Counted from the stretch's first letter, positions 4,083 to 59,540 are shown. The stretch is 64,000 nt of DNA from an uncultured Bacilli bacterium (GCA_934098705.1 CAKOPC010000002.1:250681-314680), one strand, 5' to 3'. Numbers and translations: made by a program. The notes: a model not told the origin generated them from the sequence alone.

Positions 4083-4968
4083 AATGACTATTAGAAGCTT
4101 TAGAGATGCTTTTAAAAGTGTAGTTAGAAATTTTAGTTTATCTCTAGCATCAATTACATGTATAACAATAACCCTAATAATTATAGCAGCATCCTTTTTA
4201 ATAAGTGAAAACGTTAGAAACTTTACAACATTAATAGAAAAAGATGTAACTATTGTAGCATTTTTAGATAATGATACAACTGAATTAGACAGAGAAAATT
4301 TTGAAGACAACTTAAAGAAAATGGATAACATTGATTATTACAACTATACATCAAAACAAGAAGTAAAAGATAATATGGCTAAAGACTATGAAAGTTTAAA
4401 AGATGTATTAGATAACTGGGATAATACTGAAAATCCCCTTAAAGATACATATACAATAAAGGTTATAGATGTAAATAATATAAGAAAGACGGCAGAAGAA
4501 ATAAAAGCTCTTGATAAAGTATCAAGCGTACAATATGGTGAAGGATTAGTAGAAAAAATGCTTAGTGCATTTAGAGCAGTTGAAAAAATTACTTTGATTG
4601 CAGCCCTTGCCCTTGTTGTTGTAACTATATTCTTAATTATTAATACTATAAAACTTACAATATTTTCAAGAAAACAAGAAATATATATTATGCGTCTTGT
4701 TGGAGCATCAAATATGAGAATAAAATTACCATTTGTAATTGAAGGTATTGTACTTGGAATAATAGGATCATTTATACCAATAATAGTTATAATTTATGGT
4801 TATATGGCACTTTATAATAAAATGGGTGGAGTACTTTTCTCATCACTTATAAAACTTGTAAAACCAGTACCATTTGTATTTAATTTATCAGTTGTTGTTT
4901 TATGTATTGGAGTGCTTGTTGGTATGGTAGGAAGTTCAAGAGCAGTAAGGAGGTATGTTAAAATATAA
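4069..4968 (+). CDS. ftsX: cell-division permease-like protein FtsX
   Basis: 299 aa with one TM, an extracellular domain and three C-terminal TMs. 14-nt overlap with ftsE. Confidence 0.85.
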   Translation: MKSFRMTIRSFRDAFKSVVRNFSLSLASITCITITLIIIAASFLISENVRNFTTLIEKDVTIVAFLDNDTTELDRENFEDNLKKMDNIDYYNYTSKQEVKDNMAKDYESLKDVLDNWDNTENPLKDTYTIKVIDVNNIRKTAEEIKALDKVSSVQYGEGLVEKMLSAFRAVEKITLIAALALVVVTIFLIINTIKLTIFSRKQEIYIMRLVGASNMRIKLPFVIEGIVLGIIGSFIPIIVIIYGYMALYNKMGGVLFSSLIKLVKPVPFVFNLSVVVLCIGVLVGMVGSSRAVRRYVKI

Positions 4969-6131
4969 TGAAGTATGTTAAAACACTTCTTTTGCTATTA
5001 ACAATATTTCTAACATTTAGTATATCAAATATAAATGTTAATGCTCTTACTATAAATGATTACCAAAGAGAACTTGATAAATTAAAAGAAGAAAAAAGAA
5101 AACAAGAAGAAGCTGATGAAAAAGTAAAACAAGAAATAGAGCAAAAAAAGCAAGAGATGGCACAAGTAAATGAAAAGATAAAACAAGCAACAAATGATAT
5201 TGCAGACAAAGAAAAAGAGATAAAAGATTATGAGGGTAAAATTGAAGTTAAAGAAGAACAAATAAAAGACTTAGTTTCCTTTTTACAAATATCAAATAGT
5301 GAAAACTTTTATTTAAAATATATTTTTGGAGCAGAAAGTTTTACTGACTTAATATATCGTATTTCAGTTGTAGAACAGTTAACAACAAAGAGTAATGAAC
5401 TAATTGCTGAAATGTCAAATCTTATAAAAGAAAATAAGCAAAATATTGAAGAATTAGAAAATAAAAAAGTAGAATTAAATAAACTTAATAGAGAAATACT
5501 TGATAAGATATCATCACTTGGAAAAGAAAGAGATAGTTTCTTTGATGAAGTAGAAAGTATAGACGAACAAATATCTATAGCAGAAAAACAAATAAAACAA
5601 TATCGTGATTTAGGATGTAAAGATAATGAAGAGTTAAGTACTTGTACTAGTTTAATTCCTTCATCAAGTGGTTTTATAAGACCAGTAAAGTCAGGAATAA
5701 TAACTGATGATTATGGTTGGAGAGTTGATCCATGTGCTGTTTGTAGTGATTTCCATAAAGGTATGGATATTGGTGGAAATAGTGAAGGAACCCCAGTGCT
5801 TGCATCAGCTGCCGGAAAAGTTGTAAATATTGCTAAATATAGTTGTGGTGGTAAAGTATTAACAATAGATCACAATATAAATGGTGTAAGTTATGCAACA
5901 AGATACTGGCACTTATACGAAATAGATGTAAATGTTGGAGACTTTGTCGTTCAAGGTCAACAAGTTGCTAAAGTAGGAGGAGGTAATACACTATATTACG
6001 ATCCATGTTCTACTGGAGCCCACTTACACTTTGAAGTTTTAGAGGGACATTACTTTGCTGCAACATATTTAGATCAAGTAAGAAATCCAAGAGACTATGT
6101 TAATTTCCCAGCATATGATGTGTGGTGGTAA
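4968..6131 (+). CDS. coiled-coil M23 (LytM) peptidoglycan hydrolase, likely FtsEX partner
   Basis: Signal peptide, long K/E coiled coil, and M23 motifs HKGMDIG and AHLHFEV. Start overlaps the ftsX stop. Confidence 0.8.
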   Translation: MKYVKTLLLLLTIFLTFSISNINVNALTINDYQRELDKLKEEKRKQEEADEKVKQEIEQKKQEMAQVNEKIKQATNDIADKEKEIKDYEGKIEVKEEQIKDLVSFLQISNSENFYLKYIFGAESFTDLIYRISVVEQLTTKSNELIAEMSNLIKENKQNIEELENKKVELNKLNREILDKISSLGKERDSFFDEVESIDEQISIAEKQIKQYRDLGCKDNEELSTCTSLIPSSSGFIRPVKSGIITDDYGWRVDPCAVCSDFHKGMDIGGNSEGTPVLASAAGKVVNIAKYSCGGKVLTIDHNINGVSYATRYWHLYEIDVNVGDFVVQGQQVAKVGGGNTLYYDPCSTGAHLHFEVLEGHYFAATYLDQVRNPRDYVNFPAYDVWW

Positions 6132-6133
6132 AA

Positions 6134-6157
6134 AGTTACAATTTAGTAACTTTTTTT
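6134..6157 (+). terminator. intrinsic terminator
   Basis: Stem AGTTAC / GTAACT followed by a T-run. Confidence 0.6.
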
Positions 6158-6234
6158 AATTTTTATAAAAATTATTAGTAATATTTATAAAAGTGTGTTA
6201 AAATAAGTACATAAAAAGGAAGTGTTATACAAAA

Positions 6235-7719
6235 ATGAGAGAAATAACAGAACAAGAACAAGTAAGAAGAGATAAATTAAAAGAAATAAAGAACCCTTAT
6301 CCAGAAAGGTATGAAACAAATTATTCTTTAAAAGAAGCTAGTGTTTTAGAAGATGGTACAAAGGATGTTTCAGTTGCAGGACGTATTGTATTAATGAGAA
6401 AAATGGGAAAATTATCATTTTTAACAATAGGGGATATTGAAGGCAGAATACAAATATGCATGAAACAAGATTTATTAGGAGAAGAAAAATATAAAGAATT
6501 TAAAACTAACTTTGATATAGGTGATTTTATTGGAGTTGTTGGAGAAATATTTACAACTCAAACTGGAGAAAAAACTATAAGAGCTAGTCATTTTGAGTTC
6601 TTAGGAAAAGCTTTAAAACCTCTTCCAGAAAAATTTCATGGTTTAGTAGATCAAGAAACAATATATAGAAATAGATACATAGACCTAATAATGAATGAGG
6701 ATTCACGTAAAAAGTTCTTATTTAGATCAAAATTCATTTGGGAATTAAGAAATTATCTTAATAATATTGGTTATATAGAAATAGAAACACCTATCTTAAA
6801 TAATAAACCAAGTGGTGCAACTGCAAGACCATTTATAACACATCATAATGCTTTAGATATTGACTTATATTTAAGAATTGCTCCAGAAACATATCTTAAA
6901 AGAGCTGTTGTTGGAGGATACACAAAAGTATTTGAAATAGCAAGATGTTTTAGAAATGAAGGTATGGATTCATCACACTTACAAGATTTTACAATGATAG
7001 AAGGATATGGAGCCTATTTAAATTACAAAGATAACATGAAACTATTAAAAGACATGTTACAAACAATTATCTATAACATGTTTGGCACATTAAAAGTTAT
7101 GGTAGGAGATAAAGAGGTAGATTTATCTGGAGAATGGGAAGAAGTATCATTTAGAGATTTAATATTAAGATATGTTGATATAGATATAGATGTTTATAAC
7201 ACTAAAGAAAAATTATTAGATAGAATAAAAGAATTAAAATTAGAAATAGATAGTGAAACACCACTTGAAGATTTAGGATATGGTAATTTAGTAGATCAAC
7301 TATATAAAAAAGTAGCAAGATGTCATGTTGTAAATCCAATTTTCTTAAGTAAACATCCAATAAGCTTATCACCTCTTGCAAGAGCAAATGATGACAATAA
7401 AAATATTACAGACCGTTTCCAACTTGTTATAAATGGAGCAGAGATAATAAATGCTTACTCAGAGCTTGTTGACCCAGTAGAACAAGAAAAAAGATTACTA
7501 GAACAAGCAGCATTAAAAGAACAAGGTGATGAAGAAGCAATGCCAATGGATTATGATTATATTGATGCTATGGAATATGGTATGCCTCCAATATCAGGTT
7601 GGGGTATGGGAATTGATAGAATAGTACAATTACTAACAAATAGTGAAAATATAAAAGATTGCGTTATGTTCCCACTTATGAAACCATTAAACGATCAAAA
7701 AAAATTAGAAGATGAATAA
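6235..7719 (+). CDS. lysS: lysine--tRNA ligase (class II)
   Basis: 494 aa with an OB-fold N-terminus and class II motifs (FRNEGMD, GMGIDRIV). Confidence 0.95.
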   Translation: MREITEQEQVRRDKLKEIKNPYPERYETNYSLKEASVLEDGTKDVSVAGRIVLMRKMGKLSFLTIGDIEGRIQICMKQDLLGEEKYKEFKTNFDIGDFIGVVGEIFTTQTGEKTIRASHFEFLGKALKPLPEKFHGLVDQETIYRNRYIDLIMNEDSRKKFLFRSKFIWELRNYLNNIGYIEIETPILNNKPSGATARPFITHHNALDIDLYLRIAPETYLKRAVVGGYTKVFEIARCFRNEGMDSSHLQDFTMIEGYGAYLNYKDNMKLLKDMLQTIIYNMFGTLKVMVGDKEVDLSGEWEEVSFRDLILRYVDIDIDVYNTKEKLLDRIKELKLEIDSETPLEDLGYGNLVDQLYKKVARCHVVNPIFLSKHPISLSPLARANDDNKNITDRFQLVINGAEIINAYSELVDPVEQEKRLLEQAALKEQGDEEAMPMDYDYIDAMEYGMPPISGWGMGIDRIVQLLTNSENIKDCVMFPLMKPLNDQKKLEDE

Positions 7720-38970: not shown

Positions 38971-39498
38971 TAAACAGTAATTATTATATCGTATAGTTTT
39001 GGTATAACAATTATTATAAGGACAATTTTTAAAATGGCCAATATGCCATCCCATCATTTTTATATAAGCTTCCTTTAAAGTATAAAATTTAAAGAATGTA
39101 TAATTTTTATTAGAACTTTTTAAAAGTTCTAATTTTTCATCATCATTAAAATAGTAGTTTACAATATTGGGATTATAATCTCTAATTTTTTCAATATCAC
39201 ACCCTATAGCATATTTAGATGTAACTAAAATAGTTATATCATCTTTATTGGATATATTAAAATTAAATTTATCATCAAAATATGGTTTTCCATTTATGTT
39301 ATATTTCATATTTTTAATATCTATATTTAATTTATTGTTTCTAATATATTTTTCTAATAGATAATAAGACATTATTTTTCTCTTATTTTTTAAAACTTTA
39401 TACTTTTGCACATCATTTAATATGTTAAAAACTTTATCAAATGTAATAGCATCAATATCATTAAAATTACAAATATCAATATAAAACAATGAAATCAC
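38947..39498 (-). CDS. Sfp-type 4'-phosphopantetheinyl transferase
   Basis: GKPYF, FNISN, GCDIE and TLKEAYIKMMG motifs. Confidence 0.7.
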   Translation of the reverse strand: MISLFYIDICNFNDIDAITFDKVFNILNDVQKYKVLKNKRKIMSYYLLEKYIRNNKLNIDIKNMKYNINGKPYFDDKFNFNISNKDDITILVTSKYAIGCDIEKIRDYNPNIVNYYFNDDEKLELLKSSNKNYTFFKFYTLKEAYIKMMGWHIGHFKNCPYNNCYTKTIRYNNYCLSICLTIN

Positions 39499-39572
39499 CT
39501 CATACTTATTATAACATTTATATTTACATAATTGTTAATAAATAGTATTATTTTATTATAGGAGTGTAGTAT

Positions 39573-40079
39573 ATGAAAAAGAAAATAACAAAAAAAGAAA
39601 TAGTAAAGTTACTTTTAAATCAAAACTTAGAAGAAGGAAATGAAGAAGAATTGATGGATTCACTTGTAAAAGAGCCAGTAGCCATAGATATTATAAAAGA
39701 GGATGAAGAAAGTAAAAGTTTTGGAGAAAGACTTTCTGATAAATTAACAAAAGTTGCAGGTAGTTGGAGCTTTTTACTTTGCTTTATATTATTTTTAATA
39801 GTATGGATAATTTTAAATTTATATGCTTTTGAAAGTATTGACCCTTATCCTTTTATTTTACTTAATCTTCTTTTATCATGTATTTCAGCAGTACAAGCCC
39901 CAATTATTATGATGAGTCAAAATAGAGCTGCTAAAAAAGATAGTATAAGAAGTAAAAATGATTATAAAACAGATTTAAAAAGTGAACTTATTTTAGAAGA
40001 TTTGTATGAAAAAATGGAAAAAATTATTGCAAATCAAAATAAAATATTAAAGAAATTAGAAGAAACTGATAATAAATAA
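39573..40079 (+). CDS. DUF1003-like membrane protein
   Basis: Two TMs and the QAPIIMMSQNR motif, as recalled for DUF1003. Confidence 0.6.
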   Translation: MKKKITKKEIVKLLLNQNLEEGNEEELMDSLVKEPVAIDIIKEDEESKSFGERLSDKLTKVAGSWSFLLCFILFLIVWIILNLYAFESIDPYPFILLNLLLSCISAVQAPIIMMSQNRAAKKDSIRSKNDYKTDLKSELILEDLYEKMEKIIANQNKILKKLEETDNK

Positions 40080-40188
40080 GTAAAAAAAGTATTTGACTGT
40101 TGTATAATTCTAGCAAATTATATTGATATAAAAAACAAGATGAAATATTAACAATTTTGTTAATTAATGTCTTTTATTAAAAAAAATT

Positions 40189-40213
40189 AGTCTTTTATAT
40201 AAGACTTTTTTTT
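40189..40213 (+). terminator. intrinsic terminator (A-run/T-run flanked)
   Basis: Stem AGTCTT / AAGACT followed by a T-run that runs into promoter-repeat copy 1. Confidence 0.65.
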
Positions 40214-40292
40214 GACAAAAAAATACAAACAAATGTATTGACTTTGAAAAATTAGTTTGTTATAGTAAGGATGTTTTTAAGGAGGAATTTAT
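40208..40292 (+). repeat. uvrB-promoter repeat, copy 1 (drives the RhuM-like gene)
   Basis: First ~61 nt are identical to 41472-41532. The remainder, up to the SD TTAAGGAGG, is similar. Offset between copies is 1,264 nt. Confidence 0.9.
40238..40266 (+). promoter_or_regulatory. sigma-A-type promoter
   Basis: TTGACT, 17-nt spacer, TATAGT. Preceded by ATACAAACAAATGTAT. Confidence 0.6.
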
Positions 40293-41318
40293 ATGAATAA
40301 CACAATAATTGGTAATGAAAAAAACATTTTATTTTATAGTGATGAAGAAGGTAATACAAAAGTAGAAGTATTATTAGAAAACGAAGATGTCTGGTTAAAT
40401 ACTGAAGCAATATCATCACTTTTTAATGTTGATAGAAGCGGAATTGTAAGACATATTAACAATATTTATAAAGATGATGAATTAAATGAAAATATCACAT
40501 GTGCAAAAATTGCACATATGGGTAATGATGGTAAACAAGTTTATAATACAAAATATTATAATCTTGACATGATTATCTCCATAGGATTTAGGGTTAACTC
40601 TAAAAAAGCAATTAAATTTAGAACCTGGGCAAATAAAATAATTAAAGACTATATGGTTCAAGGTTTTGCACTTAATGATGATAGATTTATGAAAGCAAGA
40701 AAAACAGATCAGGAATATTTTAAAAGATTACTTGAGAAAATTAAATTAATTCGTACAAGTGAGAGAATGTTTTATCAAAAAATTACTGATATATTTGCTG
40801 AATGTTCTATTGATTATGATAAAAATAGTGATACTGCATTAACTTTTTATAAAACTATTCAAAATAAATTTCATTATGCAATTACAGGCAAAACTGCTGC
40901 TGAAATAATTTATAATAGAGCAGATTCTAAAAAAGAAAATATGGGACTTGCTACTTGGGAAAATTCTCCTAATGGCAAAATATTAAAAACTGATGTTATT
41001 ATTGCAAAAAATTATTTAGATGAAAAAGAAATTAAAAATTTAAATAATTTAGTTAATTTATTTTTAGATATTGCGGAAAATAATGCTGAAAGAAATATTG
41101 TAATGTGTATGAATGATTGGAAAAATGAAGTAGAAAATGCAATTAAAGTTTTTCATTATGGAGTTTTAAATGATAAAGGTAAAATATCTCACCAAATGGC
41201 ACAAGATAAAGCATTTTTGGAATATGAAAAATATAAAGTAATACAAGATAAAAGTTTTGTTTCAGATTTTGATAAATTATTAATTGAAGCAAAAAATATA
41301 GAAAATAAAGATAATTAA
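40293..41318 (+). CDS. RhuM-family protein
   Basis: 341 aa. The N-terminus ...VWLNTEAISSLFNVDRSGIVRHINNIY and FRVNSKKAIKFRTWANKII are typical of RhuM as I recall it. Confidence 0.75.
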   Translation: MNNTIIGNEKNILFYSDEEGNTKVEVLLENEDVWLNTEAISSLFNVDRSGIVRHINNIYKDDELNENITCAKIAHMGNDGKQVYNTKYYNLDMIISIGFRVNSKKAIKFRTWANKIIKDYMVQGFALNDDRFMKARKTDQEYFKRLLEKIKLIRTSERMFYQKITDIFAECSIDYDKNSDTALTFYKTIQNKFHYAITGKTAAEIIYNRADSKKENMGLATWENSPNGKILKTDVIIAKNYLDEKEIKNLNNLVNLFLDIAENNAERNIVMCMNDWKNEVENAIKVFHYGVLNDKGKISHQMAQDKAFLEYEKYKVIQDKSFVSDFDKLLIEAKNIENKDN

Positions 41319-41471
41319 TTACAATATAAGTATAAAAAAATTATAAATTTTATTACCAAAATATTTTTTGTTTTAATATACAAAATCATTATAAAAACAA
41401 TTAAAGATGCATGTTAATTATTAATATTCTATTTAAATTATTAATAAAAAAATGTATTTTATAAAGGGAAA

Positions 41472-41557
41472 TTTTTTGACAAAAAAATACAAACAAATGT
41501 ATTGACTTTGAAAAATTAGTTTGTTATAGTAAAGGTACTTTTAAGGAGGGATACTTT
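41472..41557 (+). repeat. uvrB-promoter repeat, copy 2 (drives the truncated uvrB copy)
   Basis: See copy 1. Confidence 0.9.
41502..41530 (+). promoter_or_regulatory. sigma-A-type promoter
   Basis: TTGACT, 17-nt spacer, TATAGT, identical to 40238-40266. Confidence 0.6.
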
Positions 41558-41830
41558 ATGTTTAAATTGGAATCAAAATATCAGCCAAGTGGAGATCAAC
41601 CAGAAGCAATAGAAAAATTAGTAGATGGTATAAATAGTGGTTTAAAATATCAAGTATTAAATGGAGCAACAGGAACAGGTAAAACATTTACTATGGCAAA
41701 TGTTATAAAAAATGTTAATAAACCAACTTTAGTATTAGCTCATAATAAGACACTTGCAGGACAACTTTATAGTGAACTTAAAGAGTTATTTCCTGAAAAT
41801 AGAGTTGAGTATTTTGTGTCATATTATGAC
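41558..41830 (+). pseudogene. uvrB: truncated uvrB 5' fragment (codons 1-91)
   Basis: Colinear with 44411-44683. Nt 41664-41817 are identical to 44517-44670. Homology ends after TATTATGA, and the frame then runs into unrelated sequence until a stop at 41866. Confidence 0.9.
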
Positions 41831-41843
41831 AGTACCAAAAAAA

Positions 41844-41965
41844 TAGTGTTATTTGGTGCTATTTAATGTTATTTAATCCTGAAAAACGGACTAAATAACA
41901 CTCGATGGTACCAAATGAACAAATAAAATTTGTGGCCGAGAGTCGTGGCCATTCGTGGCGAATGA
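41844..41965 (+). repeat. boundary repeat D-L (phased TTATTTRRT units plus AAATTTGTGGCCGAGA block)
   Basis: TAGTGTTATTTGGTGCTATTTAATGTTATTTAAT and AAATTTGTGGCCGAGAG..ATTCGTG recur at 44255-44337. Internal inverted repeat: 41845-41854 pairs with 41893-41902. Confidence 0.7.
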
Positions 41966-42014
41966 TGTTTTAACCTTTAAATGGTAAATTTTTACAAAAA
42001 ATGATAAAATTCAC

Positions 42015-42043
42015 TTGATTTTACTAATATTATTTGTTATTAT
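42015..42043 (+). promoter_or_regulatory. possible promoter of the radical-SAM cassette
   Basis: TTGATT, 17-nt spacer, TATTAT. AATGGTAAATTT occurs on both sides (about 41980 and 42045). Confidence 0.35.
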
Positions 42044-42110
42044 AATGGTAAATTTATAAGAAACGATACTATCGCTACTTAATCTACAATCCGTTTAATA
42101 TTTAATACAT

Positions 42111-42141
42111 AAGGTGGCGATTACTTTTTTCGTCACCTTTT
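42111..42141 (+). promoter_or_regulatory. leader hairpin with short T-run in the 5' UTR of the peptide gene (possible attenuator)
   Basis: AAGGTGGCG pairs with CGTCACCTT (9 bp, one G-U pair) across an 11-nt loop, followed by TT. Confidence 0.4.
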
Positions 42142-42176
42142 AAATTACATAATAAAATGAAATGGAGGATTAAACT

Positions 42177-42404
42177 ATGAAAAATTCAAGAAAGATAGAA
42201 ACTTTAAAAAATATGAAGACTGCTGCTATTAGATTATATGAAATATATATGGCACAATCAAATCAAAATAAAATAGAAATGAATTGTTATCATGAAAATG
42301 AACATGATAATAGTGGTGCTCATCCAGATTATCATAATAATTCTCATGATAATACCCCAGGTAGAATGATGACTCGTACTTTAGTTAAAAATGCAACAAA
42401 TTAA
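42177..42404 (+). CDS. 75-aa candidate RiPP precursor with five H-x-(N/D) triplets
   Basis: Strong SD GGAGGA. The core region is CY-HEN-E-HDN-SGA-HPD-Y-HNN-S-HDN (nt 42291-42353). Overlaps the radical-SAM gene by 14 nt. Confidence 0.5.
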   Translation: MKNSRKIETLKNMKTAAIRLYEIYMAQSNQNKIEMNCYHENEHDNSGAHPDYHNNSHDNTPGRMMTRTLVKNATN

Positions 42405-43494
42405 TACTTTAATTAAACCTACACATGAATGTAACATGAGATGTAGGTACTGTTTTGCTGAAAAATATGGATATGAAAATTCTTTGTTAGATATTAATAA
42501 ATTAAAAAAGTATATTGAACTTTTAGCAGAGAAATATAAATATATAAATTTGGTGTGGCATGGTGGAGAACCATTGATGGCACCGTTAGATTATTATCAA
42601 GAAATATATGACTATTGTAAAAAGTTTGATTCGAAATTTATATATTCATTACAAACAAATGGTACATTATTGAATGAAGAAAATATAGATTTTTTTAAAA
42701 CAAATAATACTAGTATTGGGTTATCATTTGATGGTTTGACAAATGATAAAACTAGATCGCATACACAAAGAATTTTAGAGAATATTAAATTACTTCAATT
42801 AAATGAAATGTATCCTGGGGCGGTTTTGGTTGTTAATCAAAATAATGTAAATAATTTGATTGGAGAATATGAATACTTTAAATCATTAAATTTAGGTATG
42901 AAAATGAATCCTATGTTTAATGATGGTGCGGCAAAAGAAAATAATTTTTTCAATTTAAATCCAGATGAATATATCAAAAATTTTATAGAATTTTTTAAAT
43001 ATTGGTCGCTAGATACAAATTGTAATATAAATGTGTCTACTTGTATAGAATTAGTAAATTTAATATTAAATGAAAGAAGTGGCGTTTGTACTTTTAATTC
43101 TTGCTTAGGAAAATGGTTATGTTTTGATAGTAATGGACATTTATATCCATGCGATAGATTATGCTTAGATGAATACGACTTAGGAGATATTACAAAAATT
43201 ACATCTATAGATGAAGCATTTGAAAATGAAAATTTTATAAAACTATTACAAAAGAACATTTCAAGAAGACAAAAATGTATTGATGAATGTGAGTATTTTA
43301 AAAATTGTTATGGTGGATGCAATGCTAATGCTATTTTAAATGAAGTTAATAAAAATAATGTTTCATGTTATATTCAAAAAGGAATATTAGAAGGAATTAA
43401 AAAATTTATAATTGAACTTAGTAATCAAAAAGAATATGATAAATTAAATTATAGTTTATCAAAAATTTTAATAAGAAGGGATAGTAAAATATGA
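42391..43494 (+). CDS. radical SAM enzyme with C-terminal SPASM-type Cys clusters
   Basis: CNMRCRYC (CX3CX2C) at nt 42430-42453. C-terminal CTFNSC...LYPCD and CIDECEYFKNCYGGC. Confidence 0.85.
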   Translation: MQQINTLIKPTHECNMRCRYCFAEKYGYENSLLDINKLKKYIELLAEKYKYINLVWHGGEPLMAPLDYYQEIYDYCKKFDSKFIYSLQTNGTLLNEENIDFFKTNNTSIGLSFDGLTNDKTRSHTQRILENIKLLQLNEMYPGAVLVVNQNNVNNLIGEYEYFKSLNLGMKMNPMFNDGAAKENNFFNLNPDEYIKNFIEFFKYWSLDTNCNINVSTCIELVNLILNERSGVCTFNSCLGKWLCFDSNGHLYPCDRLCLDEYDLGDITKITSIDEAFENENFIKLLQKNISRRQKCIDECEYFKNCYGGCNANAILNEVNKNNVSCYIQKGILEGIKKFIIELSNQKEYDKLNYSLSKILIRRDSKI

Positions 43495-44045
43495 AATATG
43501 TTTATCACGGGAGTTCAATACCAAATTTAAAGATTATTAAAACAAACGAAAGTACTCATATGAAAAAATGGGTATATGCATGTGTATCAAAAGCTATATC
43601 AACAATTTTTTTGTCACCATTAGGTAATGACCTGTATTATTCATTATCTGGTGATGGAATTGACTATCCAGTAGAACTAGTTGAAAGAAAATCCGATATG
43701 TTTAAAAAAATATTTAACTGTTCTGGTTACATCTATAAACTCGATGCTTCCAATTTTAAAAGTGGACAAACTGGTTGGTCAGCGGAAGTTGTTAGTGAAA
43801 AAGATGAGGAAGTACTAGAAGTAGAATATATTGAAAATGTATATGACGAGTTAATTAAATTAAATAAAGAAGGATTAATAAGGCTATATTTATATCCTGA
43901 AAAACCAAATAGAATACCACAAGATAATAGTGATTTAATTCCAAAGGTCATTAAATGGAAAAAAAATGGTTTTGATGTAAATAAATTTTATGAATTATAT
44001 CCAGAATTAAAGGATAAATTTTTGAAAATGTTGAATGAACAATAA
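43491..44045 (+). CDS. hypothetical 184-aa protein, translationally coupled to the radical SAM gene
   Basis: ATGA start/stop overlap. No TM, and I recognise no family. Confidence 0.5.
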   Translation: MKYVYHGSSIPNLKIIKTNESTHMKKWVYACVSKAISTIFLSPLGNDLYYSLSGDGIDYPVELVERKSDMFKKIFNCSGYIYKLDASNFKSGQTGWSAEVVSEKDEEVLEVEYIENVYDELIKLNKEGLIRLYLYPEKPNRIPQDNSDLIPKVIKWKKNGFDVNKFYELYPELKDKFLKMLNEQ

Positions 44046-44091
44046 CTAAAAAATAATTTTTATAGAATATTATAGATTAAATTAATCAAAT

Positions 44092-44125
44092 AGGATTACT
44101 GTAAAAATAGAAAAGTAATCTTTTT
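44092..44125 (+). terminator. intrinsic terminator of the cassette
   Basis: Stem GATTACT / AGTAATC followed by TTTTT. Confidence 0.6.
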
Positions 44126-44254
44126 AAATATTTACCTATTTTTAATGAAAAAATATCATTTACTGAATTTAAATAAAATCTTAAAAGTAGCACTATGTAA
44201 TCTGTAATTTAATATCTTAAAATGCCATAAAATAAATGATAGAATAATATCAGT

Positions 44255-44337
44255 TAGTGATATTTAGTGCCATTTAATGTTATTTGGTATCGTTTAATAA
44301 ATTTGTGGCCGAGATGTGTATTTTATTCGTGTCGGCC
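44255..44337 (+). repeat. boundary repeat D-R
   Basis: TAGTGATATTTAGTGCCATTTAATGTTATTTGGT...AAATTTGTGGCCGAGAT..ATTCGTG. A diverged copy of D-L that lacks ~45 nt of it. Confidence 0.7.
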
Positions 44338-44410
44338 TAATTTTGGTTCATTTTAATGAAATTATATGATAAAATTTTAAATGAAATTAAGCTATAATAA
44401 GGAGGACAAA

Positions 44411-46360
44411 ATGTTTAATTTAGTATCAAAATATACTCCATCCGGAGATCAACCACAGGCAATAGAAAAATTAGTGAACGGTATAAATAGTGGTTTAAAA
44501 TATCAAGTATTAAAGGGAGCAACAGGAACAGGTAAAACATTTACTATGGCAAATGTTATAAAAAATGTTAATAAACCAACTTTAGTATTAGCTCATAATA
44601 AGACACTTGCAGGACAACTTTATAGTGAACTTAAAGAGTTATTTCCTGAAAATAGAGTTGAGTATTTTGTATCCTATTATGATTATTATCAACCAGAAGC
44701 ATATGTTCCTCAAACAGATACATATATAGATAAGACAAGTATGATAAATGATGAAATAGATGAATTAAGACACTCTGCAACAAGTGCATTAATAGAAAAT
44801 AGAGATGTTATAGTAGTAGCAAGTGTTTCATGTATTTATGGTATTGGAGAAAAAGATGAATATAAAAATAACATGTTAACATTAAATGTTGGAGTAAGTT
44901 ATAAAAGAAATAAATTACTTCAAAAACTTGTTGATATGTTATACGAAAGAAATGATATAGATATAAAACGTGGTACCTTTAGAGTACATGGAGATGTTAT
45001 AGAAGTAATACCAACTGGAGAACATCAAAAAGGATATAGAATAGAACTATTTGGTGATGAAATTGATAGAATAAGTGTCTTCGATGTTGTAACGGGTCAT
45101 ATTATAATGGATAAAAAAACTATATCAATTTTTCCAGCAAGCCACTTTGTAACAAGTAGTGAAAACTTAAAGAAAGCTTGTGTTAGTATAAAAGAAGAAC
45201 TTGATGAAAGGTTAGCAGAACTTAGAGGTGAAAATAAACTTTTAGAGGCTCAAAGATTAGAACAAAGAACAAATTATGACCTAGAAATGATAGAAGAAAC
45301 AGGTTTTTGTAGTGGTATTGAAAATTATTCAAGACATTTAGGGGGTAGAAAAAAAGGCGAAACTCCAACATGCTTAATAGACTTTTTTCCTAAGGATTAT
45401 CTTTTAATTATAGATGAATCTCATGTAACATTACCTCAAGTTAAAGCTATGTATAACGGTGATAGAGCAAGAAAACAAGTTTTAGTTGATTACGGTTTTA
45501 GATTACCAAGTGCTCTTGATAATAGACCTTTAACTTTTGAAGAGTTTGAAAAAAAATTAAATCAAGTAATATTTGTAAGTGCAACTCCAGGAGATTATGA
45601 AATAGCAAAAGAAGAACAAGAAGTAGATCAAATAATAAGACCAACAGGACTTTTAGACCCAGTAGTTGAAGTTAGAAAAACAAAAGGACAAATAGATGAT
45701 TTAGTAGGAGAGATAAATGACAGAATAGAAAAAAATGAAAGAGTTTTGATAACAACCTTAACTATACGTATGGCAGAAGAATTAACATCATACTTAAAAT
45801 CATTAAATATAAAAGTAGCTTATTTACATAGTGAAGTAAAAACATTAGAAAGATTAAAAACAATAAGAGAATTAAGACTTGGAACATATGACTGTATAGT
45901 GGGAATCAACCTTTTAAGAGAAGGACTTGATATACCTGAAGTATCATTAGTAGCTATTTTAGATGCTGATAAAGAAGGATTTTTAAGAAGTCATAGAAGT
46001 CTTATTCAAACAATAGGAAGATGTGCTAGAAATGAAAATGGACGTGTTATTATGTATGCAGATACTATAACTGATAGTATGCGTCTTGCTATAGATGAAA
46101 CCAAAAGAAGAAGAGATATACAAGAAAAATATAATAAAGAACATAATATTGTACCAAAAACAATTATTAAAGAAATAAGAGAAGTAATATCAAATAAAGA
46201 TGAAAAAACTATAATAAAAGAAAATAAAGAACATAAAAAATATGACAAAGCCTTATTACAAAACATAGAAAAAGAAATGAAAGAAGCTGCTAAAAACTTA
46301 GATTTTGAACGTGCTATGGAACTTAGAGATATCCTATTTGAGATGAAGGCTCAAAAGTAA
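44411..46360 (+). CDS. uvrB: excinuclease ABC subunit B (intact)
   Basis: Helicase motifs ([13 protein letters not shown]), the beta-hairpin region [10 protein letters not shown] and a C-terminal UVR domain. I prefer ATG 44411 with SD AAGGAGGA over 44381. Confidence 0.95.
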
Positions 46361-46427
46361 ACTAATCCAACAATTATTTACTTTTATGATAACATTGTGA
46401 TATTCTATATATAGTAGGAGGAATAAA

Positions 46428-47189
46428 GTGAGAAGAAGAAAAAAATTAAAAAAAGGATATAAAAAAGTTTTAAGATTTTTACTTATTTCTATAACATTAT
46501 GTCTTCTAGTTGAAGTAGGATACTACTATATGACTTTAAATAAAGAATTAACTCCAGTATATAATCATGAAGAGTATTTTTATGCTAGTGATTTTGGTAT
46601 TAATGTTATAAAAAGTGAAACTGATTACGATAATGATGGTATTGATGATTATAGTGATATTTTATTGGGAGCTCAAAAAGAAAGAGATAGAAATCCAATT
46701 TATGTAAGTAAATATTATGATGGTGGATACCCTCCAGATGATGAAGGAGTGTGTACTGATGTTATTTGGCGTGCTTTAAAAGAAGCAGGATATTACCTAA
46801 AAGATATGATGGTTTATGACATAACAAAGGATCAAAAAGATGGGACAGGTAGATATGACATAGATATAAGAGATGATAATATTGACTTTAGAAGAGTAGA
46901 TAATCAAGAAGCATTTTTAAAAGAATATACAGAAAGCTTAACAACTGATATTTATGATATAGAAAGCTTTATGCCTGGTGATATAGTAGTATTTGATTAT
47001 GGAGCTCATATTGCTATTATCTCTAATAAAAGAAATGAAAATGGTATTCCCTATTTAATTCAAAATAGAAGTGAAGATCAAGAAGAAAAGGAAGAAGACC
47101 GTATTGAAAAAACAGATATGTCTATTACAGGACATTATAGATTTACATATAATAGAGAACTAAAAAGATTAATAGAAAAAATATCATAG
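46428..47189 (+). CDS. DUF1287-like protein
   Basis: N-terminal TM. GGYPPDDEGVCTDVIWRALKEAGY motif recalled from DUF1287. Confidence 0.5.
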   Translation: MRRRKKLKKGYKKVLRFLLISITLCLLVEVGYYYMTLNKELTPVYNHEEYFYASDFGINVIKSETDYDNDGIDDYSDILLGAQKERDRNPIYVSKYYDGGYPPDDEGVCTDVIWRALKEAGYYLKDMMVYDITKDQKDGTGRYDIDIRDDNIDFRRVDNQEAFLKEYTESLTTDIYDIESFMPGDIVVFDYGAHIAIISNKRNENGIPYLIQNRSEDQEEKEEDRIEKTDMSITGHYRFTYNRELKRLIEKIS

Positions 47190-59363: not shown

Positions 59364-59511
59364 ATTTATAAACTTTTGTAATTTATCAACAGAATATTAA
59401 AAACCTTTAAATCTATAAAAATAATTGTTAAAAATATTTTTATAAAAATAACTTTAAAAAAGGTTATTAAAAAGCTATACAAAAAAACAAACAAATGTAC
59501 GTAAAAAAGTA

Positions 59512-59540
59512 TTGACATACAATTTTGTGTATGCTACTAT
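59512..59540 (+). promoter_or_regulatory. promoter-like element pointing antisense into the 59585..60178 gene
   Basis: TTGACA, 17-nt spacer, TACTAT. Preceded by ACAAACAAATGTAC (59487-59500), which is shared with the uvrB promoter repeats. Confidence 0.35.

Follow-up and report, generated by a model that had tools for sequence, protein, structure and literature searches.

The DNA analysed here is a 64,000-nt stretch from an uncultured Bacilli bacterium (GCA_934098705.1, CAKOPC010000002.1:250681-314680), referred to below as the window, in which the 5′ end of uvrB is present twice, on either side of a short insert. Positions within the repeat (+n) are counted from the A of the uvrB ATG; W stands for the window locus, and L followed by a number denotes contigs or loci of the sequence collection.

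The two copies, at 41558-41830 and 44411-44683, are colinear without insertions or deletions at an offset of 2,853 nt and are identical at 255 of 273 positions, which on recomputation bears out the arrangement described in the initial annotation. Its account of about a dozen substitutions in the first ~105 nt and of differences in the final ~12 nt is also sound: of 18 mismatches, 15 fall in +1 to +105 and three in the final 13 nt (+261, +264 and +273). The identical core that it placed between them exists and is one base longer than the 154 nt given, the longest identical run being 155 nt (41663-41817 and 44516-44670). The left copy breaks at codon 91, as had been stated, and its reading frame consists of 91 UvrB codons and an 11-codon foreign tail, with a stop at 41866, giving a stub of 102 codons. 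The right copy encodes a complete UvrB of 649 aa with all Pfam UvrB domains and, as claimed, has a different promoter region; the sequences 5′ of the two ATGs are unrelated (46 of 118 positions identical). The features of the duplication and of the insert are as follows.

41558-41817, + strand: left uvrB copy, host-derived part, codons 1-87 (left attachment site, attL, chromosomal side); identical to the empty allele in contig L039 for -120 to +260
41818-41830, + strand: final 13 nt of the left uvrB copy, contributed by the element (G at +261, A at +264, C at +273); the sole difference from L039
41831-41965, + strand: left-end module (repeat search; DNA fold z = -4.6; homologues in 13 family members)
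42177-42404, + strand: open reading frame (ORF) of 75 aa with a His/Asn/Asp-rich C-terminal half and a 14-nt overlap with the next gene; candidate precursor peptide (ORF list)
42391-43494, + strand: radical SAM/SPASM peptide-maturase-like enzyme, 367 aa (Pfam Radical_SAM, 4e-17)
43491-44045, + strand: ORF of 184 aa with no assigned function (no significant family)
44245-44337, + strand: right-end module (aligns with the module after the integrase gene in L067, L068 and L079)
44338-44515, + strand: element-borne upstream region, Shine-Dalgarno (SD) sequence (44399-44405) and first 105 nt of uvrB (host comparisons)
44516-44670, + strand: 155-nt zone with no difference from either the left copy or the empty allele, a homogenised or exchanged tract (absent in L005, L008 and L036)
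44411-46360, + strand: intact hybrid uvrB, 649 aa (Pfam UvrB_inter, UvrB, Helicase_C, ResIII and UVR)

The element-derived end of the left copy (41818-41830) lies inside a candidate core, TTTGT(A/G)TCATATTATGAC, which contains the palindrome (A)TCATA-T-TATGA(C). The junction at which TCATATTATGAC is followed directly by AGTACC is present in all four hosts in which the window element was found. All four have nearly the same element-borne upstream region and initial ~30 nt of uvrB, with nt 31-105 being of the element type only in some.

None of the three ORFs between the uvrB copies is related to recombination or transfer. The 367-aa enzyme has full-length NCBIfam matches to DynA (5e-50), to an anaerobic sulfatase maturase (1e-48) and to other peptide maturases, all below the curated cut-offs. 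The 75-aa ORF, which found no family match in Pfam, NCBIfam and further family searches, is always accompanied by the radical-SAM gene in the loci displayed and is a candidate for the precursor peptide of that enzyme. The 184-aa ORF has no significant family in Pfam, PADLOC, NCBIfam and further searches; a single-sequence AlphaFold model of the protein was unusable (predicted local distance difference test score 46). The cargo as a whole resembles a small gene cluster for radical-SAM/SPASM peptide modification that includes a candidate precursor, and a PADLOC comparison with known defence systems gave no match past the generic radical-SAM core. The initial annotation had noted the lack of an integrase or transposase in the segment. 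The integrase part of that statement is confirmed, in that Pfam detects no recombinase domain in 41831-44410 and a tblastn search with six integrases of the family described below finds no homologue in the whole 64-kb window.

Inside both ends of the insert, in the same orientation, lies a second repeated module that the initial annotation had not described. It consists of ~10-bp iterons (TATTTRRTGY), followed by the 15-mer AAATTTGTGGCCGAG and then by a GC-rich hairpin. In the left module, the iterons occupy 41844-41879, with an inverted iteron copy at 41888-41916, AAATTTGTGGCCGAG at 41926-41940, and TCGTGGC repeats and the hairpin at 41943-41964. In the right module, the iterons (44245-44298) are followed by AAATTTGTGGCCGAG at 44299-44313 and by the hairpin GGCCGAG...TCGGCC at 44307-44337. 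The modules are candidates for arm-type or accessory binding sites of an integrase. They are not a known RNA, since an Rfam scan of 39000-47000 gave nothing relevant; equally, since the window contains no tRNA genes, the insert is not a tRNA-targeting island. A link to phages was also considered and set aside: viral contigs scanned with the hairpin motif (19 matches) and the left junction (one match) gave only chance-level matches with no related context.

Empty sites and spread between hosts

The duplication marks where a mobile element, probably in circular form, was inserted. An allele without the insert is present in the same species, in contig L039, which was found by look-up of the neighbouring DUF1003 protein and has the gene order DUF1003-rhuM-uvrB-DUF1287, with uvrB uninterrupted directly after rhuM. 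This uvrB is identical to the left copy for -120 to +260 and to the right copy from +106 on. The comparison identifies the native promoter and 5′ end as those of the left copy, and the upstream region and first 105 nt of the right copy, together with the last 13 nt of the left copy, as foreign. The earlier proposal of a foreign uvrB 5′ fragment is thereby supported, and it gains a short foreign end in the left copy. The suggestion that the direct repeats should permit precise excision is likewise in keeping with an empty allele that corresponds to the left copy joined to the right copy. A second empty allele occurs in L063, from an L004-like species, and within the W species the site is polymorphic, being occupied in some strains and empty in others.

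A protein identical to the radical-SAM enzyme of the window turns up in 113 index blocks of the collection. In the places displayed, the order uvrB′ - 75 aa - radical SAM - 184 aa - uvrB is constant, and the genomes and flanking genes differ. The element was followed in four hosts (W, L004, L009 and, from a later look-up, L084). Its 2,580-nt interior shows 13-14 mismatches among the three hosts compared (~99.5% identical), and L084 differs from the window at 20 positions. The UvrB proteins of the same three hosts are only 68-70% identical, the rest of their uvrB DNA is ~68-72% identical, and their flanking genes differ. The combination of a near-identical interior with divergent uvrB genes indicates recent horizontal transfer.

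These data bear on two of the alternatives to a mobile element. The first is that duplicated or collapsed contig ends made the repeat, an error that the initial annotation had itself raised. Repeats of 273 nt do break short-read assemblies, and in 51 of the 113 radical-SAM blocks the longest carrying contig measures only 2-5 kb. Nevertheless, the order host flank-uvrB′-cargo-uvrB-host flank was assembled independently in over 20 contigs 60-270 kb long, by several studies and assemblers, for which reason we do not regard it as an artefact; furthermore, two copies that differ at 18 positions are not one collapsed sequence. The probability that we attach to an assembly error is close to nil. The second is that the insert is an inert relic of one old integrase event, now fixed, which has spread vertically and by allelic recombination of the uvrB region between conspecific strains. 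An insert with neither integrase nor transfer genes would suit such a history, as would the left copies of the W species, which are identical except in L034, and right-copy haplotypes that look like progressive replacement from the uvrB side. Against it stands an interior that is 99.2-99.5% identical in four hosts with different flanks, where UvrB identity among the three compared is ~68-70%, a distance that flank-mediated exchange cannot span. The polymorphism of the site within a species, and the existence of contigs that run from right end to left end, also speak against a relic, and we consider this history very unlikely.

Contigs of the latter kind are of interest in their own right. Seven protein clusters (P0001-6 and P0009) are stubs with an element-type N terminus, which places a right end next to a left end. 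Contig L044, of 2,908 nt with a 55-nt terminal overlap, reduces to a unit of exactly 2,853 bp; L045 is a permuted unit, and L043 runs from W host flank through one element into a right-to-left junction. A junction variant with an IVEG patch shares only 20 nt at that point, too few for it to have arisen through simple collapse of repeats at k = 55. The right-to-left junctions are on this basis probably real circles or tandem copies, two forms that look the same in a short-read assembly.

Elements and integrases at uvrB codon 90/91

The insert in the window is one of many at the same position. When the 102-aa stub was used as a search query, 108 of the 120 best-matching database proteins were ~102-aa UvrB stubs in which a foreign tail takes over after VSYY (codon 90/91); 64 different tails were counted. 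One tail is found with several host N termini and one host N terminus with several tails, a reshuffling which indicates that the site turns over. Because the tails are left-end iterons in translation, the length of 102 aa recurs. The same junction, TA(Y)TA(Y)(GAY) followed directly by element sequence, is shared by the four hosts of the window element and by those 108 stubs. A degenerate left-end pattern matched seven GTDB genomes (uncultured Bacilli, Clostridia, an Oribacterium bin and a Bacteroidaceae bin), with uvrB codons 1-91 immediately 5′ of the motif in every one. An alignment of 13 left-end modules resolves at least four subfamilies, all of one architecture.

What occupies the site varies widely. 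Integrative and conjugative element (ICE)-like members carry ParA/ParB, a SpaA adhesin, sortase and TnpV. One recurrent cassette, of 1.85 kb, encodes nothing but a 368-aa protein without a Pfam family and is found in several hosts (L049 10495-11601; also L056, L058, L069, L075 and L080); the copies are 94-96% identical across contigs, with a 62% relative in L073. Further cassettes without an integrase bear an AbiEi/AbiEii abortive-infection toxin-antitoxin pair or a YhcG/DUF1016 PDDEXK nuclease (L081 10548-12585; L057 3352-4311). Tandem arrays are found in L059, L082 and L056; that of L082 sets a small cassette in tandem with an ICE-like element, with RhuM upstream of uvrB′. From its gene content, the uvrB site appears to behave as a small defence-gene hot spot. 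Full-text literature searches did not turn up a paper in which uvrB serves for attachment, and codon 90/91 of the gene thus emerges as a widely used, apparently undescribed integration hot spot of uncultured gut Bacilli and Clostridia, host both to ICE-like elements and to many tiny cassettes, several with defence-type cargo. The mechanism class itself is well known and comprises a tyrosine-integrase element, restoration of the target gene, decay into cis-mobilizable elements (CIMEs) and accretion.

Members with an integrase provide the link to that class. A tyrosine recombinase reading frame, preserved as its C-terminal part, runs straight into the element-borne uvrB upstream region in L056 and L052. 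A first search with a C-terminal remnant returned fragments only, and intact genes were reached through a profile search and a metagenome motif scan. The profile of integrase remnants drew 1,709 relatives, mostly truncated. The metagenome scan, made with the right-module motif, led to L066, L068 and L072, in which an intact integrase of 439-440 aa has the Pfam domains Phage_int_SAM_3 and Phage_integrase. The intact proteins possess an N-terminal extension of ~80 aa, which by analogy would be the place of the arm-binding domain in heterobivalent integrases. Their gene ends ~135 nt before the right module, after which comes the element-borne uvrB 5′ end. The L059 array reads uvrB′ - ParA/ParB... 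- int (frameshifted) - uvrB′ - lysin... - 300-aa integrase ORF - intact uvrB, the 300-aa ORF being without the N-terminal part of the core-binding domain. Both the left and the right module of the window align with those of integrase-bearing and ICE-like members; it follows that the window element has the two ends of the family and lacks its integrase.

Several smaller observations concern these recombinases. The integrase relatives in the protein collection are mostly 5′-truncated ORFs of 64-317 aa, many of which start at about one point of the core-binding domain, and remnants lie at about 7398-7800 in L052 and about 3900-4270 in L056 (reoriented copies). Retention of the int 3′ end seems to be due to its position next to the element's uvrB 5′ end, a sequence that the host needs. 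Two tandem tyrosine recombinase genes are present in L066 (1023-3537) and L072 (23-2348), the upstream one encoding 343-406 aa and being ~29% identical to the one proximal to the attachment (att) site. In the host L004, a large serine recombinase (559 aa; Resolvase, Recombinase and Zn_ribbon_recom) adjoins a 130-aa fragment of a penicillin-binding protein (PBP; Transpeptidase/PASTA) at 4441-6739, an arrangement that suggests a separate element in the PBP gene, ~3 kb upstream of uvrB. This recombinase was rejected as a helper for the uvrB element; it belongs to the PBP-gene insertion and is absent from the other hosts.

Recombination at the uvrB repeats

Left copies, right copies, empty alleles and end-to-end junctions were compared in the four hosts in order to place the exchange. 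The left copy of W is host sequence to +260. That of L009 resembles the host to +252 or beyond and has its first element-specific base at +264, and that of L084 stays host-like until a point between +252 and +272. That of L004 is ambiguous and has an element-type patch at +60 to +67 relative to the empty allele L063. In the right copies, the element-type sequence ends at ~+30 in L084, between +39 and +59 in L004, at +252 in L009, and, depending on the strain, at +105, +204 or +264 within the W species. The right copy of L009 is plainly foreign (L004-like) to +252 and host-like from +264. Its switch falls within an 11-nt window (TTTGTATC...) beside the palindrome TCATA-T-TATGA, and longer identical blocks further 5′ were left unused. 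Eleven nucleotides are too short for RecA-type recombination. The identity available for exchange amounts to 155 nt in the window, at most 11 nt in L009 and 20 nt in L004, the last being a borderline length for RecA, which needs tens of nucleotides.

The initial annotation counted the identical core between diverged flanks among the marks of a Campbell event. This does not hold generally, the core being absent from strains L005, L008 and L036 of the same species. It is better read as the product of later gene conversion or homologous exchange between the repeats. The variable end-points of the right copies and the left copy of L034, which alone among those of the W species carries a right-copy patch and so records a non-reciprocal change, make up the pattern that conversion between repeats predicts.

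We think it probable that the segment from 41818 to about 44515 is a 2,853-bp non-autonomous element, a decayed and integrase-less CIME-like member of a tyrosine-integrase family whose att site lies at uvrB codons ~85-91. Integration would sever uvrB from its promoter and first 91 codons, and family members would carry, at the integrase-proximal (right) end, their own upstream region and uvrB codons 1-91. Upon insertion of the circular form, the copy brought by the element would become fused to the rest of uvrB, and the host promoter and 5′ end would be left behind as the 102-codon stub. The original crossover would be located in the short core by the left junction, at about +253 to +263, around TCATA-T-TATGA. 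The iteron modules may serve as arm-type sites for the family integrase, which a related element would supply in trans or, once the two had accreted in tandem, in cis. Gene conversion or homologous exchange after integration, between the 273-bp repeats or with empty alleles, could then have generated the 155-nt core and the variable lengths of the right copies. Such exchange would replace the middle of the right copy stepwise by host sequence and could not pass the start of homology, leaving a variable stub of element sequence at the 5′ end; the same process could delete the element or amplify it in tandem.

The main competitor to an integrase is the host's own recombination machinery. Purely homologous, RecA-type Campbell integration would use the 273-bp uvrB copy as a portable homology arm, with the reverse event excising the element and the family integrase being irrelevant to its integrase-less derivative. 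No integrase is encoded in the element, the window or the host loci, and the 155-nt identical tract of the window is an ample recombination substrate. The end-points of element-type sequence vary as listed above, with an interval in L004 of +40 to +59 and others near +30 in L084 and at +105, +204 and +264 in the W species. The attP-type junction fragment has also gained a host-like middle in three host lineages, as repeated homologous excision and integration would predict. The fixed junction, however, fits poorly with this route. L009, the only host in which the right copy is still clearly foreign, made its exchange in 11 nt of identity at the very end of the homology despite longer blocks 5′ of it, and in three of the four hosts (W, L009 and L084; L004 is ambiguous) the left copies are of the host type to ~+252-260. 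A junction fragment with 70-80% homology to the uvrB of a new host is a poor substrate for RecA. In addition, the iteron and hairpin modules have stayed ~99.5% conserved from host to host and are homologous to their counterparts in integrase-bearing relatives, for which there is no apparent reason if they are unused. We regard an exclusively homologous route as unlikely. The single Campbell-type crossover of a circle proposed in the initial annotation survives in its topology, that of a circle bearing a uvrB 5′ fragment and joined by one reciprocal exchange. The idea of a circle with chance homology does not survive, in view of a large family at one codon, integrase-bearing relatives, retained end modules and the 11-nt exchange in L009.

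Integrase-mediated entry has its own difficulties, which should be set beside these. The case for a site-specific crossover draws mainly on one host, L009, whose empty allele was not recovered. The mosaics of W, L004 and L084 can equally be explained by homologous crossovers at variable positions, and for L004 compared with L063 (the LVKG/IVEG patch) a crossover at +40 to +59 is the simplest explanation. Neither the 64-kb window nor any of the four 20-kb host loci yields an integrase homologue, such that the helper is assumed and not observed, and active helpers may be uncommon given that most integrase relatives in the databases are 5′-truncated remnants. Finally, the L044 circle could be a de Bruijn-graph loop produced by the flanking repeats.

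A bolder form of the homologous route would have a recombinase-free element that moves between genera by means of its arm of uvrB codons 1-91, which belong to the best-conserved parts of a universal gene, with host recombination taking it in and out, the arm being re-tailored in each cycle and the ancestral integrase having become dispensable. We hold this to be a rather doubtful proposition. Xer-dependent integration, of the type of integrative mobile elements exploiting Xer (IMEX), may well not apply, the site lying inside uvrB and not at dif.

A decayed family member entering by a related integrase, the reading that we favour, can be compared with several known systems. With a typical tyrosine-integrase ICE, integrative and mobilizable element (IME) or genomic island, the window element has in common that different genomes are entered at one and the same point, that the flanking direct repeats stem from attB and attP, and that empty sites exist (L039 and L063); unlike these, it encodes no integrase of its own. 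For SXT at prfC, Hochhut and Waldor reportedly found in 1999 that the element gives prfC a new promoter and N terminus and that prfC stays functional. There, as at uvrB, a tyrosine integrase family targets the 5′ end of a conserved housekeeping gene, and element sequence restores a hybrid gene. The integrase families and hosts are nevertheless unrelated (gut Bacilli and Clostridia as opposed to Gammaproteobacteria), the homology carried by the uvrB elements is much longer, and the window element, unlike SXT, is without integrase or conjugation genes.

Non-replicating plasmids integrate in the laboratory by insertion-duplication (Campbell-type) recombination, and the “minimal mobile elements” of Neisseria are moved by flanking homology. 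The window insert resembles the former in that a homology segment is duplicated around it and homologous recombination acts on the repeats, as seen in the variable end-points and precise loss. Neither system is known to have conserved end modules, a fixed junction shared by dozens of unrelated cargoes, or an integrase family, and minimal mobile elements, unlike the window element, are not known to leave a duplication. Defence islands and integration hot spots offer a parallel in the often defence-like cargo of the uvrB site (RhuM of PDC-S05, AbiEi/AbiEii and the YhcG/DUF1016 nuclease), from which the radical-SAM/SPASM peptide-maturase-like cluster of the window element departs.

The closest resemblance in organisation is to CIMEs. 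The relevant passages of PMC5704250, citing Pavlovic 2004 and Bellanger 2011, describe CIMEs and their tandem accretion with ICEs and IMEs, for example in the ICESt1/ICESt3-related islands at the 3′ end of fda in Streptococcus thermophilus. Like a CIME, the window element has three cargo ORFs only, none of them for recombination or transfer, is flanked by a duplicated piece of its target gene, and shares its site with integrase-bearing relatives; decayed and intact elements stand in tandem at that site (L059, L082 and L056), and attL and attR (end modules plus uvrB repeat) are, at the level of sequence, homologous to those of integrase-bearing members. It differs from the CIMEs of the fda site in that insertion affects the beginning of a protein-coding gene (codons 1-91 of uvrB and the region upstream) and not a 3′ end, and in that its repeat is long (273 nt) and shows clear homologous reshuffling. 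It is also only 2.85 kb in size and is near-identical in hosts whose UvrB proteins are ~68-70% identical. A near-identical, integrase-less element of 2.85 kb in four hosts could provide a natural test case for non-autonomous mobilisation and for the combined action of site-specific and homologous recombination on long att repeats.

The uvrB promoters and rhuM

Upstream of the left uvrB copy lie the native promoter and a gene that shares its promoter sequence.

40174-40288, + strand: first copy of the uvrB-type promoter, fused to rhuM (direct repeat, promoter scan, motif search)
40293-41318, + strand: rhuM (Virulence_RhuM, Pfam 8.6e-98; PADLOC candidate defence family PDC-S05, 2e-130)
41438-41557, + strand: native uvrB promoter region and SD (identical to L039; promoter scan, motif search)

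The native promoter consists of TTGACT-17-TATAGT at 41502-41530, with the palindrome ATACAAACAAATGTAT at 41487-41502 abutting the -35 hexamer and AAGGAGG at 41543-41549. For the upstream region borne by the element, a consensus scan found no convincing promoter. A perfect TATAAT at 44393-44398 was rejected as the uvrB promoter; it abuts the SD and cannot serve it. The hybrid uvrB may be transcribed from a start further 5′ or by read-through out of the cargo genes. Occupied genomes would express uvrB from element-borne upstream sequence and with an element-borne N terminus, the native promoter driving only the 102-codon stub.

The palindrome ATACAAACAAATGTAT resembles a Gram-positive LexA (Cheo) box and has no counterpart 5′ of the uvrB start borne by the element. 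Weaker matches occupy two neighbouring places, 59485-59500 and 59517-59532. The number of occurrences in the window is no higher than chance, for which reason the idea of an SOS box is put forward as a hypothesis. Carriage of the element may alter damage-inducible control of nucleotide excision repair; a loss of SOS control would be one hypothetical form of such a change.

The promoter is itself part of a second duplication, also absent from the initial annotation. A direct repeat of 115 nt flanks rhuM (40174-40288 and 41438-41552, 86% identical), of which the central ~80 nt, including the hexamers and the palindrome, are identical. In the first copy, TTGACT-17-TATAGT occupies 40238-40266 and ATACAAACAAATGTAT occupies 40223-40238, and rhuM is joined to this copy exactly at its start codon. 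A related context occurs in L040 (9740-10817), where the same upstream genes and a rhuM of 92.7% identity are followed by a zinc-ribbon membrane protein and a prfB-like gene, with no uvrB; this contig, either a chimeric assembly through rhuM or another rhuM context, was not used as evidence. In L052, uvrB codons 1-23 and a module remnant precede rhuM. Taken together, the promoter repeats and the L052 context give rhuM the appearance of an older cassette of the uvrB site that captured the native uvrB promoter and has since decayed, which is probably what it is.

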